From NCBI RefSeq assembly GCF_024298765.1, contig NZ_CP101217.1: a stretch of DNA of 3,174 nucleotides. The stretch is one strand, 5' to 3'. Origin of the DNA: Escherichia coli. Lineage in GTDB: Bacteria; Pseudomonadota; Gammaproteobacteria; Enterobacterales; Enterobacteriaceae. The notes below the pieces were generated by a model that was not told where the DNA came from, searched no databases, and worked only from the letters and a program-made list of their open reading frames with translations. Shown here in pieces: positions 1 through 3,174 of this stretch. Both the position numbers and the translations under genes were made by a program. Every line of letters begins with the position of its first letter. The first letter of the stretch is position 1.

Positions 1-164
1 CGACGCGCCCCGTGATCGATGGCCTTGGCTCCGTCCGGCATATCGAGAGCGGCAAACTACCCGTCCCTTCACTGGGAGGGGTGAGTTGTTGCCGTTCCCT
101 CCGACCTTCCACCATCCAGCATATCGCACGATCCCATGAGCACCGCAACAACTGATAACTCCAG

Positions 165-266
165 AGCAAAAAAAAAAAAAGGATCTGCATCATGTGAGAG
201 TGATCCCACCGCTCGCCGCAGCCCCAGCGACCGAACGTAGTGAGCGAGTGGGCGAGGAAGCGGAAG
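165..266 (+). other. ColE1/pMB1-like origin-proximal segment (A13 tract plus conserved downstream block)
   Basis: A13 homopolymer at 168-180. Block 208-266 ACCGCTCGCCGCAGCC...GTGAGCGAG...GCGAGGAAGCGGAAG closely resembles the pBR322/pUC segment ACCGCTCGCCGCAGCCGAACGACCGAGCGCAGCGAGTCAGTGAGCGAGGAAGCGGAAG (recalled), which lies just downstream of the ColE1-type replication origin on the RNAII-sense strand, in the region of the primosome assembly sites. Confidence 0.35.
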
Positions 267-379
267 TGAACCGGAAACCACATTGAGCACGTACGCACCT
301 ATGCCAGATCCGCGCGTAGCGCGTCGCGAAATCGAAAACATTGAACACCGGCAGGCAAACGCACCACCACGCAGCGGAA

Positions 380-775
380 TTAATGATGATCTGGGCTTGT
401 TTCAAGATCGAGCCTGATTGCCTTAAGTTTCTGTAATATATTGTCTTTTGGGTATCTCAGTTCGCCTGTTTTTGTGTCCACTAGTCCGGCCTCGATCAGT
501 AACCCCGCCGCAAGAAACAGGCGGTGATTGCGTTCCCGTCGTTGTGTTTTCCCCTCCATCCGTTTTTGGTTGGCCTGTTTGCGTGCGTTCTCCTGTGCCT
601 GTAGCTCGTTTTTTTCTGCGGTTGCCAGGACGTGGAGTAGTTTGCGCTCCTGTTCTGTTAGTCCGGCTTCGTTATCGAGCAGGTCAATGATCTGCCTCTG
701 TCGTGCGGTCTGTTCTCCGAGCTTCCTGATAAAGCCGATTCGTTTCTTCAACCAGTCGATGTTGCTGATGCGCAT
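380..775 (-). CDS. mobC: MobC-like relaxosome accessory protein (131 aa)
   Basis: Minus-strand ORF, ATG at 775-773, stop TAA (complement of 380-382). AGGGAG Shine-Dalgarno on the minus strand about 10 nt upstream of the ATG. Divergent from the relaxase gene across the oriT region, as in IncQ mobC-oriT-mobA. The motif KTQRRERNHRLFLAAGLLIEAGL resembles the RSF1010 MobC motif as recalled (ERKNETRRKVLVGAMILAKV). The six-frame track extends the ORF to a GTG at 895 (171 aa), which would run through the oriT palindrome; the ATG at 775 with its RBS is preferred. Confidence 0.7.
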   Translation of the reverse strand: MRISNIDWLKKRIGFIRKLGEQTARQRQIIDLLDNEAGLTEQERKLLHVLATAEKNELQAQENARKQANQKRMEGKTQRRERNHRLFLAAGLLIEAGLVDTKTGELRYPKDNILQKLKAIRLDLETSPDHH

Positions 776-799
776 GTTTGGGATGCTCCCTGGTGTTTT

Positions 800-850
800 T
801 TGCGGTGTGTTGGGGTTGTGCAGTATATCGCTTGCGGTGGGTGGGTGCAG
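800..850. repeat. GT-rich direct repeats TTGCGGTG-N-GTGCAG (two copies) in the mobC-mobA intergenic region
   Basis: TTGCGGTG at 800-807 and 832-839, each followed by GTGCAG (818-823 and 845-850), 32-bp period. The plus strand here is strongly G+T skewed. Lies between the mobC start (775) and oriT. Confidence 0.4.
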
Positions 851-882
851 GGGGGTATCTTCCGTGCTAATTCGTAAAATTA

Positions 883-940
883 GCAGGAAGCGCACTTATA
901 TGTTTCTTCGCCGTTGGCTCAGAAACATGTGCGCTCCTGC
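883..940. other. oriT: origin of transfer (oriT), MOBQ/RSF1010-like, with candidate nic sites
   Basis: Inner inverted repeat ATGTTTCT (900-907) / AGAAACAT (921-928), with GCC/GGC pairing inside the spacer; compare RSF1010 arms CCAGTTTCTC/GAGAAACCGG (recalled). Outer imperfect inverted repeat GCAGGAAGCGCAC (883-895) / GTGCGCTCCTGC (929-940). Minus strand reads AGAAACAT-ATAAGTGCG|CTTCC (plus coordinates 898-886), matching the RSF1010 nic core TAAGTGCG|CCCT 8 of 8. Plus strand reads AGAAACAT-GTGCG|CTCCTGC (929-940), a shorter match. An additional small hairpin TGCTAATT/AATTAGCA lies at 865-885. Confidence 0.7.
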
Positions 941-954
941 GGAGGGCTAACACC

Positions 955-1908
955 GTGGCAACCTATCACCTCAATGTAAAATTTGGCGGCAAGGGACAGG
1001 CCGGAAACCATGCCGATTACATCGAACGCAAAGGCGAGTACGAGAAACGAAAAGATCTGGAATACTCAGAGCACGGGAATATGCCAGGCTGGGCGCGAGA
1101 TAATCCCTCCCATTTCTGGCAAGCGGCTGATCAGTTTGAACGTGCGAATGGTTCGACTTATCGGGAGATCGAAATCGCCTTGCCGCGTGAACTGACACCG
1201 GATCAGCGCATTGAACTGGTGCAGGATTTTGTGCGTCAGGTAGCTGGAGAACGGCACGCCTATAGCTTTGCCATTCACAATCCAAAAGCGAGCATTGACG
1301 GAGGGGAACAGCCTCATGCGCATATCATGATGAGCCAGCGTATTAACGATGGTATGGAACGTTCGCCGGAACAGTATTTCCGGCGTTATAACGCCAAGAA
1401 TCCCGAACGGGGAGGCGCAAAAAAAGATTCAGGCAATCTGACACCGACTCAGCAAAAAGAGCAATTGCGGACGTTACGGGCGAGCTGGTCAGCGTTACAG
1501 AACGAGCATTTAGCGCGTCATGGTCACAGGGTGCGCGTTGACCATCGCTCACTGGAAGAACGCGGAATTAAACGCACGCCAGAACGGCATTTCGGATTTG
1601 CCGCCTCATCACGGCTTGATCATGCGCAGCGCCGCGAAATCCTGCAAAACCGAGCGCAGCCGCTCGAACATTTTCTAGAGAAAGCGCATTCGGTTCGCCA
1701 TCAATTTGATGCACAAGTTCAGCAAAAAGAGTTAGTTAAAACGCTTTTACAGGACGTCGCACGGGAGCGAGGGCACGCGCTTACGGCAAGAATAAATAAA
1801 ACAGGTGAAGTTGAATTTGAACGTGCGCCAACGCGGACGCGGAGTAACACGCGAGGGCACGGCATGGGCATTCGTGACAACTCACGCGGGTACGACTACG
1901 AACGTTAA
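955..1908 (+). CDS. mobA: MobA relaxase, MOBQ family (317 aa, relaxase domain only)
   Basis: GTG start at 955 preceded by GGAGGG (941-946, 8-nt spacer); stop TAA 1906-1908. N-terminus MATYHLNVKF...HADYIERKGEY parallels RSF1010 MobA MAIYHL...ADYIQREGKY (recalled). Conserved motifs: ADYI (candidate catalytic Tyr22), REIEIALP, the His cluster H108...PH121AH123IMMSQRIND (candidate metal-binding triad), RYNAKNPERGGAKK, and VDHRSLEERGIKR. Confidence 0.9.
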   Translation: MATYHLNVKFGGKGQAGNHADYIERKGEYEKRKDLEYSEHGNMPGWARDNPSHFWQAADQFERANGSTYREIEIALPRELTPDQRIELVQDFVRQVAGERHAYSFAIHNPKASIDGGEQPHAHIMMSQRINDGMERSPEQYFRRYNAKNPERGGAKKDSGNLTPTQQKEQLRTLRASWSALQNEHLARHGHRVRVDHRSLEERGIKRTPERHFGFAASSRLDHAQRREILQNRAQPLEHFLEKAHSVRHQFDAQVQQKELVKTLLQDVARERGHALTARINKTGEVEFERAPTRTRSNTRGHGMGIRDNSRGYDYER

Positions 1909-1919
1909 AAGGGGACTGT

Positions 1920-2450
1920 ATGGCGAGTACAGAAGAGGGGTTGCTCACGCTCTTGTTGTCCGTTGAGCATTTGAAAAACACTGCGATAGAACAACAGAAA
2001 GCGGTTGCAGACACGCTGGCGGTCGCAAGGGAAACACTGCGGGGGTATCGGGATATTTCTGACAGTGTTGTAAAACAGGTTAGCGATGAAGTCAGAAAAG
2101 GGGTACAGAAAACGGACATTGCGGGGCTGATGGGTGAGCGCATGACCCAGGATTTTCAGCGTCTTGAAGAGACTGTGGCAAAGATGAGAGCCAACGCGGA
2201 GGCGCTTAACAAGGACATTGCGACAATTCATCACAATGTTGTTAAAGAATACAACACGCTCAATAAATACAGTCTGAAATGGTTTATCGGTGTTACGGTC
2301 AGTTTTCTGGTCATGTTCTCGTTGCTTGGCTGGTTTACCAAAACGTTGATCGACAGGAACTACACCGCGACGGAGGTCGTGTATCAGAAAATTGTTGATA
2401 TTGAAAAGAAACTGGACAAACCAGCAACAGGGAAGAGCCGGAAAAACTGA
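1920..2450 (+). CDS. mobilization-associated membrane protein, possibly MobB-like (176 aa; coiled-coil N-terminus, single C-terminal TM helix)
   Basis: ATG at 1920 lies 11 nt after the mobA stop, with AGGGGA RBS-like sequence at 1908-1913 (GGGGA centred about 8 nt upstream), implying operon coupling. Residues ~1-118 are charged and heptad-like (E/K/Q/A-rich). Hydrophobic segment WFIGVTVSFLVMFSLLGWF (aa 121-139, nt 2280-2336) is followed by a short basic tail. The antisense 200-aa ORF (1905-2507) has junk-like composition. Functional assignment is by position and by analogy with the membrane-associated MobB of IncQ plasmids, not by recognised sequence identity. Confidence 0.7.
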   Translation: MASTEEGLLTLLLSVEHLKNTAIEQQKAVADTLAVARETLRGYRDISDSVVKQVSDEVRKGVQKTDIAGLMGERMTQDFQRLEETVAKMRANAEALNKDIATIHHNVVKEYNTLNKYSLKWFIGVTVSFLVMFSLLGWFTKTLIDRNYTATEVVYQKIVDIEKKLDKPATGKSRKN

Positions 2451-2475
2451 CGCGCTTCGCTTGTCCAACGCCTCA

Positions 2476-2502
2476 CGGGACGCGAAAAAATTCCGCGTCC
2501 CG
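2476..2502 (+). terminator. candidate hairpin terminator downstream of the mobA operon
   Basis: 9-bp GC-rich stem CGGGACGCG (2476-2484) / CGCGTCCCG (2494-2502) with a 9-nt A-rich loop, 26 nt after the ORF stop. The downstream T-tract is interrupted (TTCACCGTTTTCT), so intrinsic-terminator assignment is weak; it could instead be a structured single-strand site. Confidence 0.35.
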
Positions 2503-2703
2503 TTCACCGTTTTCTGATGAGAAAGTTTGCCGTTTTGACCCGTTCGGTGCTCAGATTTGGCGAAATTGATTCCGAATCACTTTTGTGAATAGTTATGCAA
2601 GCCCCTGGAAACGTTTCTGACGCGTTTTTTGAGGTAGGGGTGGGGGAAAGCATGGTTTTTTGATGTTTTGAGCGTAAAAGCGTGAAAAATCGCGTTATTG
2701 TGC

Positions 2704-2732
2704 TTGCGATCTTTCGTCAGGGAGCGTAGAAC
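2704..2732 (+). promoter_or_regulatory. candidate sigma70 promoter for a plus-strand primer-like transcript (RNAII analogue)
   Basis: TTGCGA (2704-2709), 17-nt spacer, TAGAAC (2727-2732). It sits immediately upstream of an A-run plus hairpin (2734-2757), similar to how the ColE1 RNAII 5' end overlaps the RNAI terminator. Hexamers are only 4 of 6 matches to consensus. Confidence 0.2.
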
Positions 2733-2733
2733 G

Positions 2734-2757
2734 AAAAAAGCCCGCCGTTAGGCGAGC
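2734..2757 (-). terminator. rho-independent terminator, minus strand
   Basis: Minus-strand RNA would read GCUCGCC-UAAC-GGCGGGC followed by UUUUUU. 7-bp stem with one G-U wobble, which is a C-A mismatch in the plus-strand transcript, so the structure is strand-specific. The U6 tract corresponds to plus A2734-2739. Confidence 0.5.
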
Positions 2758-2860
2758 TTCTTCGGGTTCATTGAGGTTTTCGACCTCCTCAATGTTCCTG
2801 TGGAGTCTGTTGCGGCGACAACGGAAACCAGTTCATTCAGTTTGCATGAACCTTCTGTAT
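2734..2860 (-). ncRNA. candidate antisense regulatory RNA (RNAI-like), boundaries approximate
   Basis: Upstream of the minus-strand terminator (on that strand) are two more hairpins: CATTGAGG/CCTCAATG (2769-2794, 8-bp stem) and GTTCAT/ATGAAC (2831-2851, 6-bp stem). Three stem-loops ending in a terminator within ~120 nt resembles ColE1-type RNAI architecture. No confident promoter found; the 5' end is not defined. Overlapping ORFs in this region look non-coding. Confidence 0.25.
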
Positions 2861-3174
2861 TCTTCAAGCATTACCGACCGCACAGCCTCCCCAGAATCCC
2901 GAAAAAATCCTGTTTTTGCAGATGATTGCGTGTTTGCAAAGACCGTTTGCGGTTGGGGGAGCTGTGACGACGGCAACCGCACGCGTGAGAGTTCCGCTAC
3001 CGGCGCAGAGAGTTTCATCGACAGCGGACACCTGATGAGTTGCCACAAAAACCGTATGTAGCGCGGCTAGATTGGTTGAGTTAGACCTTGGCGGCAGTTC
3101 CCGGTATGTGGTGGCGTGACGGGTGAGATGGTGCGGCGAAGACGCATACGTCACGCAGGCGCGGGTTCTTCCAC

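Follow-up and report, generated by a model that had tools for sequence, protein, structure and literature searches.

The 179-bp region between the divergent starts of two mobilization genes in the Escherichia coli plasmid pLHC5-1-3k raises the question of which of its closely packed elements serve DNA transfer, which serve transcription, and whether a pair of GT-rich direct repeats found there is read by an accessory protein. The window analysed here, 3174 bp in length, is this entire mobilizable plasmid, at least part of which is common to 1652 plasmid records; plasmids of this sort (3-6 kb) abound in Escherichia, Salmonella, Klebsiella and Shigella. The intergenic region (776-954) extends from the ATG of an accessory gene on the minus strand (775-773) to the GTG of the relaxase gene mobA (955), and it is rich in G+T (65% overall and 82% in 790-860). 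A sequence-only reading had described, between the starts of a mobC-like gene and mobA, an IncQ-like oriT flanked by divergent mob genes; a script located all of its elements at the coordinates claimed, and the layout matches that of IncQ plasmids and pSC101. The order of elements is accessory gene, overlapping divergent promoters, nick-adjacent dyad, nick core, inverted repeat and mobA. With moderate confidence in the full model, including its nick, dyad and repeat, we interpret 776-954 as an oriT fused to the divergent promoters of a mobilization cassette of the pSC101/RSF1010 type (MOBQ1, subgroup MOBQ12).

The genes of the cassette establish this kinship. The accessory gene (380..775, minus strand), listed as an open reading frame of 131 aa, has a probable Shine-Dalgarno sequence, AGGGAG on the minus strand (786..791), 10 nt before its ATG. 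Its earlier designation as mobC holds by position only: BLASTP finds no alignment between its product and RSF1010 MobC, and a profile-profile comparison with hhalign (14 versus 15 sequences) gave E = 0.14 and a probability of 0.4%. The protein groups instead with the TraD family, being 39-40% identical to the proteins annotated as TraD in pSC101 and pMUMC-1_5 (E 3e-13). By itself it has no Pfam match, and none to PF06412 even at E up to 10; that profile is matched by 12 of the 14 aligned members of its family (best 6e-14), among the TraD proteins by that of pMUMC-1_5 (9e-8). As a homologue of PF06412-matching proteins encoded in the same gene position, it is assigned by sequence to the TraD family. 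Its AlphaFold model (pLDDT 85) is all-helical, with four helices of which one spans 55 residues, and a Foldseek search with this model found no PDB neighbour (best E = 2.2) and no recognisable DNA-binding fold. On the other side of the intergenic region, mobA (955..1908, plus strand) encodes a 317-aa relaxase of the MobA/MobL family; an apparent Shine-Dalgarno sequence, GGAGGG (941..946), stands 8 nt before the GTG at 955, a position at which the aligned relatives have ATG. MobA matches PF03389 at 6e-37 and the MobQ profile NF041496 at 6e-26, the latter below the curated cut-off of that profile, and is 52% identical to pSC101 MobA (E 1e-95). The subgroup is settled as MOBQ12 by the presence in the protein of LEYSEHGNMP, the peptide at which the Q12-f typing primer is directed (PMC3394729). 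Downstream, ORF3 (1920..2450, plus strand, 176 aa), with a hydrophobic C-terminal segment, gave no match in family searches; it is 27% identical to pSC101 MobX (E 2e-4), occupies the same gene position and is likely its counterpart. Taken by homology, the mob cassette of pLHC5-1-3k is of the pSC101 type, with a relaxase of subgroup MOBQ12. No rep gene is recognisable in the plasmid from the open reading frames or the searches, and Rfam gave zero matches anywhere in it at E up to 1. The segment 209-2629, repeats included, moves as a mob module between plasmids of differing replicon type (Col156 with a rep gene, rep_cluster_2131 and untyped).

The oriT itself is recognisable by its palindrome. 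The inverted repeat ATGTTTCTTCGCC / GGCTCAGAAACAT (900..928) has its arms at 900-912 and 916-928 and is enclosed by the outer arms GCGCAC (890-895) and GTGCGC (929..934, plus strand), which pair with each other. The core GCGCACTTA[TG]A[CT]GTTTCT is common to all enterobacterial relatives examined, and GTTTCT...AGAAAC is conserved in all of these and in RSF1010. In the relatives examined, which came from plasmids, genomes and metagenomes, the composite GCGCACTTA[TG]A[CT]GTTTCT...AGAAAC precedes mobA; that same core pattern had served to retrieve most of the metagenome loci. Homology to RSF1010, for which the bond cleaved in the substrate ...GGTAAGTGCG/CCCTCCC is given (PMC4814116 Table 1), predicts a nick (nic) on the minus strand between 891 and 890, within 5'-TAAGTGCG/CTTCC-3'. 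The nick-region core on that strand is ATAAGTGCG (891..899), and the distance from AGAAAC to the nick, 11 nt, is the same in RSF1010. MobA would recognise the inverted repeat, which on the transferred strand lies 5' of the nick and is expected to form the hairpin read by the relaxase, and would cut the minus strand at this point. Two hairpins form when the transferred strand is folded (z = -7.1). The outer arm GTGCGC repeats the nick core in inverted form, is kept after the inverted repeat in most clades, and by its presence on the plus strand leaves some room for the opposite polarity.

Abutting the predicted nick is a larger dyad (859..890), in which CTTCC(G)TGCTAATT (859-872) and AATTAGCAGGAAG (878-890) enclose the loop CGTAA. 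The small hairpin at 865-885 described earlier is its core, with 8 perfect base pairs (865-872/878-885), and it extends to 859-872/878-890 with one bulged G. In most clades the G of GCGCAC is the last base of a dyad, or the dyad stops 5-7 nt earlier if the count is confined to its inner perfect core, and no fewer than 10 distinct arm sequences occur. In some variants, changes in both arms produce perfect 13-bp pairing. Across the relatives compared, the position and the symmetry of the dyad are conserved and its sequence is not. This pattern suggests that the dyad is a recognition element whose sequence varies from clade to clade, and by analogy it would most likely bind relaxosome proteins, namely the TraD-like accessory protein, possibly together with MobA. 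Two other candidates in the intergenic region were set aside: a G-quadruplex reading of the G-runs, the G-tracts being not conserved, and an IHF site, for which no consensus match was seen by eye.

The promoters are less sharply defined. A promoter and terminator scan of the region reported no site, and all candidates are weak, with at best 7 of 12 consensus matches; none exceeds shuffled sequence, the best local score of 6.8 bits being reached in 37% of shuffled 179-nt regions. The plus-strand promoter proposed at that time (800..829; -35 TTGCGG 800-805, 18-nt spacer, -10 TATATC 824-829) does have its elements and spacer in place, but it scores 2.8 bits, ranks third on its strand and has a -35 that is not conserved in the next clade; about four matches of six had been counted for each hexamer, and this is right for TATATC (4/6, lacking the final T) but not for TTGCGG (3/6). 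The best candidate on the plus strand, at 6.8 bits, is a putative mobA promoter (832..861; -35 TTGCGG 832-837, 18-nt spacer, -10 TATCTT 856-861), and the best on the minus strand, at 6.2 bits, is a putative accessory-gene promoter (822..850; -10 TATACT 827-822, weak -35 CTGCAC 850-845), whose -35 has only 2-3 of 6 consensus matches in the window clade. The segment 832-861 aligns with TTGCGG-17-TATCTT, ATGGCA/TTGGCA-18-TACAAT and TTGTCT-17-TAAAAT of other clades, whose -10 starts 26-35 nt before GCGCAC; in seven clade representatives the -10 of the top plus-strand promoter starts 28-35 nt before GCGCAC and the minus-strand -10 lies 54-70 nt before it. On the minus strand, AGTATAT is retained in the pC11 clade; its counterpart in the alignment of the pSC101 type is CATAAT, accompanied there by a -35 of TTGACC. 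It is this positional conservation across clades that argues for the sigma-70 candidates at 832-861 and 850-822; by analogy with p1 and p3 of RSF1010, 800-829 could be a weak, clade-specific second upstream promoter. The expected mobA transcription start would fall in the left arm of the dyad, so that relaxosome assembly on the dyad would repress both mobA and the back-to-back accessory-gene promoter with its -10 at 827-822.

Within this promoter block lie the two direct repeats. Both TTGCGGTG-N-GTGCAG units are present in 800-850 as first described, on the plus strand: in copy 1 (800..823), TTGCGGTG (800-807) is separated by 10 nt from GTGCAG (818-823), and in copy 2 (832..850), TTGCGGTG (832-839) is separated by 5 nt from GTGCAG (845-850). 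This internal indel caused the automated repeat search to miss the repeat, which was therefore checked by script and by dinucleotide-preserving shuffles. An exact 8-mer repeat within 60 nt arises in 14-17% of such shuffles and the bipartite 8+6 arrangement in only 0.6-0.9% (p about 0.006-0.009); the GT-rich repeat is non-random. Aligned with each other, the longer 32-nt units (800-831 and 832-863) outscore 99.9% of composition-matched shuffles, and the spacing from TTGCGG to TAT(A/C)T(C/T) is 18 nt in both. The two copies differ in their conservation. Among 26 close relatives, 8 of the 24 positions of copy 1 are variable; its substitutions in natural plasmids fall in both half-sites, and it is absent from the pC11/pCGB40 and pSC101-type clades. 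The TTGCGGT of copy 2 is invariant in the same 26 relatives, as is 822-831 (AGTATATCGC), and is retained in the pC11/pCGB40 clade, which has this single TTGCGGT and no GTGCAG pair; the pSC101-type clades have neither. Footprinting of the window clade against the pC11 clade left only four conserved blocks upstream of the dyad, namely AGTATAT, CTTGCGGT, GCA and TATCTT. Mob-less 1.3-kb plasmids that carry oriT only keep the dyad, the nick and the inverted repeat and are missing the repeat/promoter block. As a unit, the GT repeat is restricted, among the clades compared, to the closest one.

The repeat is best regarded as a duplication of about 32 bp of the promoter block, probably specific to this clade. 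Copy 2 would contain the -35 of the mobA promoter, its GTGCAG sitting where relatives have the -35 of the accessory gene, and copy 1, being less constrained, would at best provide a weak second upstream mobA promoter and so recreate the p1-p2-p3 layout of RSF1010. The best-surviving rival, which we nonetheless consider unlikely, takes copy 1 to be a neutral leftover, without a function of its own, from slippage or a local duplication in GT-rich DNA, and only copy 2 and the AGTATAT block to matter. The variability of copy 1 beside the invariant TTGCGGT of copy 2 and 822-831, its lack of a counterpart in other clades, and the 2.8-bit score of its promoter, with a -10 that lacks the conserved final T, all suit such a remnant. 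Yet the 18-nt spacing from TTGCGG to the TAT box is kept in both units despite their unequal indels, which in the absence of selection would be fortuitous; in RSF1010 the mobC promoter is flanked by two promoters for mobA (PMC6817606); and copy 1, lying in the predicted mRNA leader of the accessory gene, could matter in other ways.

Somewhat less probable still is the idea advanced from the sequence alone, that the two TTGCGGTG-N-GTGCAG units are tandem sites for the TraD-like accessory protein or the relaxosome, serving complex assembly or acting as an operator. The improbability of the bipartite repeat by chance speaks for it, as does its overlap with both candidate promoters, since occupancy of the repeat by a protein would repress both; a general statement in PMC6856555 has it that repeats close to oriT are bound by many relaxase accessory proteins. 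The same study of MOBQ4 plasmids reports that splitting their 178-bp oriT into nucleotides 1-70 and 71-178 abolishes function, neither intergenic half supporting transfer alone, so that, as this related but distinct case indicates, sequence beyond the nick and inverted repeat can matter for transfer. However, the pair occurs only in the closest clade and is wanting in the pC11/pCGB40 and pSC101-type clades, both half-sites of copy 1 are substituted in natural plasmids, the inner spacings of the copies differ by 5 nt, or half a helical turn, and the oriT-only plasmids do without the repeats; it is the dyad, not the repeat, that changes by clade while keeping its symmetry. The reading had itself named a lack of conservation in related plasmids as what would count against such binding sites, and this is what was found. 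Judged by its distribution, the GT repeat does not form a conserved set of sites for binding the accessory protein, and the clade-specific duplication of the promoter block is the interpretation retained here.

A further alternative concerns polarity. The MOBQ nick-region consensus NWACCNNTAAGTGCGCCCTYNN / NWACCNNTAAGTGCGCCCTY, as quoted in PMC3832669, is matched by the minus strand (AAACATATAAGTGCGCTTCCTG) at 14 of 18 specified positions, including TAAGTGCGC at 9/9, the three bases after the core being different. Cleavage at 891/890 would send the minus strand out 5'-first toward the accessory gene, and mobA would therefore enter the recipient last. A nick in the plus strand at the second core copy (AGAAACAT-GTGCGC/TCC, 929-936) would make that strand the transferred one, with mobA arriving first, a very improbable course even though GTGCGC followed by YCCTGC stands just after the inverted repeat on the plus strand and is conserved in most clades. 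That copy lacks TAA, its spacing from AGAAAC to GTGCG is 2 nt instead of 5, it matches only about 10 of the 18 specified positions of NWACCNNTAAGTGCGCCCTY against 14 on the minus strand, and in the IncQ1 plasmid RSF1010 it is the sense strand of mobC that is nicked. That the repeats are iterons or another replication-control element can be given hardly any credence: they are short, direct and non-coding in a plasmid with no recognisable rep gene, but there are just two of them, sited between the mob gene starts, and they travel with the mob module 209-2629 across differing replicon types.

With the minus-strand nick and the duplicated promoter block retained, a more tentative extension concerns the dyad. 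It is possible, though doubtful, that the dyad rather than the GT repeats is a fast-diversifying 'address label' read by the TraD-like protein. Accessory-protein identity does track dyad identity, a correlation that physical linkage explains equally well. If the idea were true, the dyad would make co-resident MOBQ12 cassettes orthogonal to each other, would decide which cassette mobilizes which mob-less, oriT-only mini-plasmid (for example, the 1.3-kb pKPHS6 type), and in the same complex would be the operator that shuts off both mob promoters. Independently of this, the placement of the nick, the polarity and the control elements should aid the annotation of oriT in such plasmids, the prediction of mobilizable mob-less mini-plasmids and the design of minimal oriT cassettes.

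Comparison with known systems places the region among familiar architectures. In the MOBQ4 plasmids pIGWZ12 and ColE9-J, the 178-bp mobC-mobA intergenic region was demonstrated to act as oriT, and transfer, though better with mobC, does not require it (Garcillan-Barcia et al. 2019, PMC6856555). These are likewise small enterobacterial mobilizable plasmids, and the ColE9-J core, GCGCACTTATAC...GTGCGCCCTGCGGGGCTGA, is much like that of the window, but their relaxase is of another family, with a MobA that begins MAIYHLSMKII and a MobC of 91 aa, whereas the window relaxase has the MOBQ12 primer motif, and their mob genes have no DNA similarity to the window. Membership of MOBQ4, suggested by the 178-bp intergenic length and by ColE-type relatives, was rejected in view of the unrelated mob module of ColE9-J: blastn of the window against that plasmid returned just two short non-mob segments, and the N-terminus of ColE9-J MobA is different. 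The Dtr region of the Ti plasmid (traAFBH, oriT, traCDG; MOBQ2) resembles the window in that an RSF1010-like oriT lies between divergent relaxase and TraD-family genes (PMC4700958), and TraA, TraC and TraD autorepress both divergent promoters, to go by the title of Cho & Winans 2007, cited in the same paper. The Ti plasmid differs in being large and conjugative, in its long TraA relaxase with a helicase domain, in its extra TraC and in the activation of its promoters by quorum sensing.

RSF1010/R1162 (IncQ1, MOBQ11) shares the succession of mobC, promoters, short dyad, TAAGTGCG/C, GTTTCT/AGAAAC inverted repeat and mobA, its dyad, CCCTAC AAA GTAGGG, standing just 3' of the nick. There p1 and p3 drive mobA and p2, sandwiched between them, drives mobC (PMC6817606), and MobC co-represses (PMC4176158), a literature with which the earlier statement that divergent IncQ mob promoters overlap oriT and are repressed by Mob proteins is in line. 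Its differences are a MobC with no detectable homology to the accessory protein of the window, a mobA fused to a primase with mobB nested within it, an oriT-mobA distance of about 80 nt as opposed to 26 nt, and CCCTCC instead of CTTCC after the nick. The closest counterpart is pSC101, where the three genes recur with order and orientation unchanged (identities of 39% for the TraD-like protein, 52% for MobA and 27% for MobX), along with divergent promoters, a dyad (CCCTGATAA...TTATCAGGG) ending at GCGCAC, GCGCACTTAGAC, a TTTCT...AGAAAC inverted repeat and GTGCGC. Its dyad arms differ in sequence, it has no TTGCGGTG/GTGCAG direct repeat, its MobA is 371 aa long as against 317 aa, and the promoter hexamers of its clade are far nearer consensus (ATGGCA/TTGGCA-18-TACAAT and TTGACC-18-CATAAT in the pSC101-type loci L007, L012 and L013). 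Relaxosomes that sit over the divergent promoters of their own genes are already established in RSF1010 and the Ti plasmid, so the region confirms a known design and reveals nothing new in this respect; built like its pSC101 and RSF1010 counterparts, 776-954 is an ordinary example of that design.

A divergent, IncQ-like control region packed against oriT, as the sequence-only reading had proposed for 776-954, is borne out by homology and by an architecture shared with pSC101 and RSF1010. The three mob proteins encoded beside it are all homologous to those of pSC101 and their genes are in the same order. The MobA/MobL relaxase (955-1908, plus strand; PF03389 at 6e-37) is 52% identical to pSC101 MobA (E 1e-95) and contains the target peptide of the MOBQ12 typing primer (PMC3394729), while the 131-aa accessory protein (775-380, minus strand) is 39% identical to the pSC101 protein named TraD by RefSeq (E 3e-13). 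ORF3 (1920-2450, plus strand; 176 aa), with a hydrophobic stretch around residues 120-145, is weakly homologous to pSC101 MobX, which occupies the corresponding place in the gene order (27% identity, E 2e-4); its annotation is hypothetical and nothing more. Assignment to MOBQ4 was ruled out, the mob module of its prototype ColE9-J being unrelated to that of the window. The label mobC fits the accessory gene by position only, as judged from sequence: BLASTP detected no similarity between its product and RSF1010 MobC, and aligning the two as profiles gave an insignificant result. Pfam TraD is matched by 12 of the 14 aligned members of the accessory-protein family, and AlphaFold predicts an all-helical structure for the accessory protein, for which a structure search found no neighbour.

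These three genes are the only ones of a complete circular plasmid of 3174 bases, 100% identical in a rotated register to pLHC5-1-3k of Citrobacter werkmanii, with near-identical copies in Salmonella, Shigella and E. coli. The segment 209-2629, comprising the three genes and 776-954, is found again at 96-98% identity on plasmids with a ColE2-type rep and, more diverged, on ColE7-K317, pCE10B and many 5-kb plasmids, and is therefore a portable mob module outside the replicon. The gene list and replicon typing of 1-3174 gave neither a rep gene nor a replicon type, and Rfam detected no RNAI or other RNA in the plasmid. The non-coding 545 nt at 2630-3174 are shared by approximately 178 small plasmids, one of only 1177 bp, and probably contain an undescribed replication origin independent of a plasmid-encoded Rep protein. 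The edges of the mob module (210-265 and 2519-2629) resemble the DNA flanking the rep gene of ColE9-J (84% and 74% identity), and in 3.9 kb sister plasmids a ColE2-type rep sits between their counterparts; in the window plasmid, other DNA seems to have taken the place of rep. A non-coding run of 13 A (168-180) lies beside the segment common to ColE2-type plasmids.

The minus strand of the window reads GTTTCT...AGAAAC-ATA-TAAGTGCG-CTTCC, to be compared with GTTTCT...AGAAAC-CGG-TAAGTGCG/CCCTCC in RSF1010, where the slash marks the cleaved bond (PMC4814116 Table 1). In an IncQ1 plasmid, the strand with this core is the mobC sense strand, and mobA lies on the other side. By homology with this bond and this strand, the predicted nick falls between 891 and 890 of the minus strand; transfer would then end with the inverted repeat, and mobA would be the last gene to enter the recipient. 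A second GTGCGC directly follows the inverted repeat on the plus strand, with the wrong spacing and no TAA. This inverted copy of the nick core (GCGCAC 890-895/GTGCGC 929-934) forms outer arms to the palindrome 900-928 and most clades keep it; when the transferred strand is folded, it pairs with the nick site.

Relatives were drawn from a plasmid collection, 26 genome loci identified with a MobA profile and 120 metagenome stretches containing GCGCACTTAKAYGTTTCT, which yielded 91 distinct sequences falling into about 20 clades. All enterobacterial clades follow a common plan: from the accessory-gene start, 50-90 nt lead to a dyad, which is followed by the nick core, by the GTTTCT/AGAAAC inverted repeat with GTGCGC after it, and finally by the start of mobA. 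The hairpin reported at 865-885 proves to be the perfect core of this longer dyad (859-872/878-890, one bulged G), which in most clades ends at the G of GCGCAC. Its position and symmetry are kept across at least 10 different arm sequences, and in the window's own clade some variants have arrived at a perfect 13-bp dyad, changes in one arm being matched by changes in the other. Folding of the transferred strand (945-850) as single-stranded DNA gives two hairpins side by side (z = -7.1). Two plasmids typed as non-mobilizable and devoid of mob genes, pKPHS6 (locus L160, 1308 bp) and pRHB06-C03_8 (L161, 1306 bp), carry a near-identical oriT at approximately 190-290, with the nick core of the window, its inverted repeat including the loop, and GTGCG..CCTGCGG; their dyad arms are altered on both sides (CATCTCTCAAATT/AATTAGAGAGATG), and nothing like the repeats or promoters lies upstream of the dyad. 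Both are candidate oriT-only hitch-hikers. A metagenome contig (ULRS01055953.1, locus L068, approximately 1090-1260 minus) has a pKPHS6-type left arm and upstream DNA fused to a window-type right arm and oriT, with the junction inside the dyad and its symmetry broken; it arose either by recombination or as a chimera of assembly. At equal MobA identity, the accessory proteins of cassette pairs that share a dyad are closer to each other (96.5% versus 84.2% identity, and 96.7% versus 89.7%), a relationship that linkage alone could explain.

By sequence alone, a promoter scan with shuffles found no candidate in 776-954 above chance, and the earlier estimate of about 4 of 6 matches per hexamer was too generous (TTGCGG 3/6; TATATC 4/6, lacking the final T). 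The case for the promoters is positional conservation and not hexamer quality. When the window's clade is aligned with the next one, typified by pC11/pCGB40, only four short blocks survive upstream of the dyad: AGTATAT, CTTGCGGT, GCA and TATCTT. Among these, CTTGCGGT and TATCTT form a plus-strand TTGCGG-17/18-TATCTT (832-861), and AGTATAT, read on the minus strand (827-822), gives TATACT; a position-weight scan ranks the same two as the top candidate of each strand in the window (6.8 bits plus, 6.2 bits minus). Much better promoters occupy the same positions in other clades, namely TTGGCA-18-TACAAT, TTGTCT-17-TAAAAT and TGGTATCCT on the plus strand, and TTGACC-18-CATAAT, TTGCCA-17-TACGAT and TAAAAT on the minus strand. 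The plus-strand -10 starts 26-35 nt before GCGCAC in all compared clades, just before the dyad, and that of the minus strand is found 54-70 nt ahead of GCGCAC. The putative plus-strand transcript would begin within the dyad's left arm and continue across oriT into mobA. The G-run at 850-855 is 5 or 6 long in close relatives, giving the candidate mobA promoter a spacer of 17 or 18 nt, and the T-run at 796-801 is 6 or 7 long; both may reflect true length differences or errors in sequencing homopolymers.

What the analysis establishes is sequence homology, architecture, conservation pattern and folding potential; from these we infer the nick position and the promoters, and a dyad bound by relaxosome proteins that may also serve as operator. 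The repression model draws on co-repression by RSF1010 MobC (PMC4176158), on repression in the Ti plasmid as indicated by the title of Cho & Winans 2007 (cited in PMC4700958), and on the dyad lying where transcription is predicted to start. In the distinct MOBQ4 family, splitting a 178-bp intergenic oriT into nucleotides 1-70 and 71-178 abolished its function (PMC6856555), which counsels caution.

Every element listed in the sequence-only reading is present where it was placed, including the bipartite repeat TTGCGGTG-N10-GTGCAG (copy 1, 800-823) and TTGCGGTG-N5-GTGCAG (copy 2, 832-850). The 8-mer repeat alone arises in 14-17% of dinucleotide shuffles and the 8+6 arrangement in 0.6-0.9%, and alignment of the two 32-nt units, 800-831 with 832-863, gives p ~0.001. 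The most economical reading of the direct repeat is a duplication of a promoter block of ~32 bp specific to this clade. The TTGCGG of copy 2 is the conserved -35 of the candidate plus-strand promoter, and its GTGCAG aligns where relatives carry the minus-strand -35 (GGTCAA = TTGACC); TTGCGG lies 18 nt from the TAT-box in both units, though the indels differ in size. Within the closest clade, neither 822-831 nor the TTGCGGT of copy 2 varies. Copy 1 is variable there at 8 of 24 positions affecting both half-sites (TTACGGCG in the pRHBSTW-00562_3 type, GAGCAG in locus L009) and has no counterpart outside that clade among the relatives compared. The promoter previously placed at 800-829 is not supported, scoring 2.8 bits against 6.8 for the best plus-strand candidate; copy 1 would be a weak additional promoter or else a remnant in decay. 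The suggestion that the repeats bind the accessory protein is disfavoured, finding no comparative support and failing on conservation in related plasmids, the yardstick that the sequence-only reading had itself set. With the minus-strand candidate located between the two units, the arrangement is like that of RSF1010, in which mobA is driven by p1 and p3 and mobC by the intervening p2 (PMC6817606). As an oriT-promoter module, 776-954 belongs to the pSC101/RSF1010 kind, of which it is an ordinary example that had not been dissected before.
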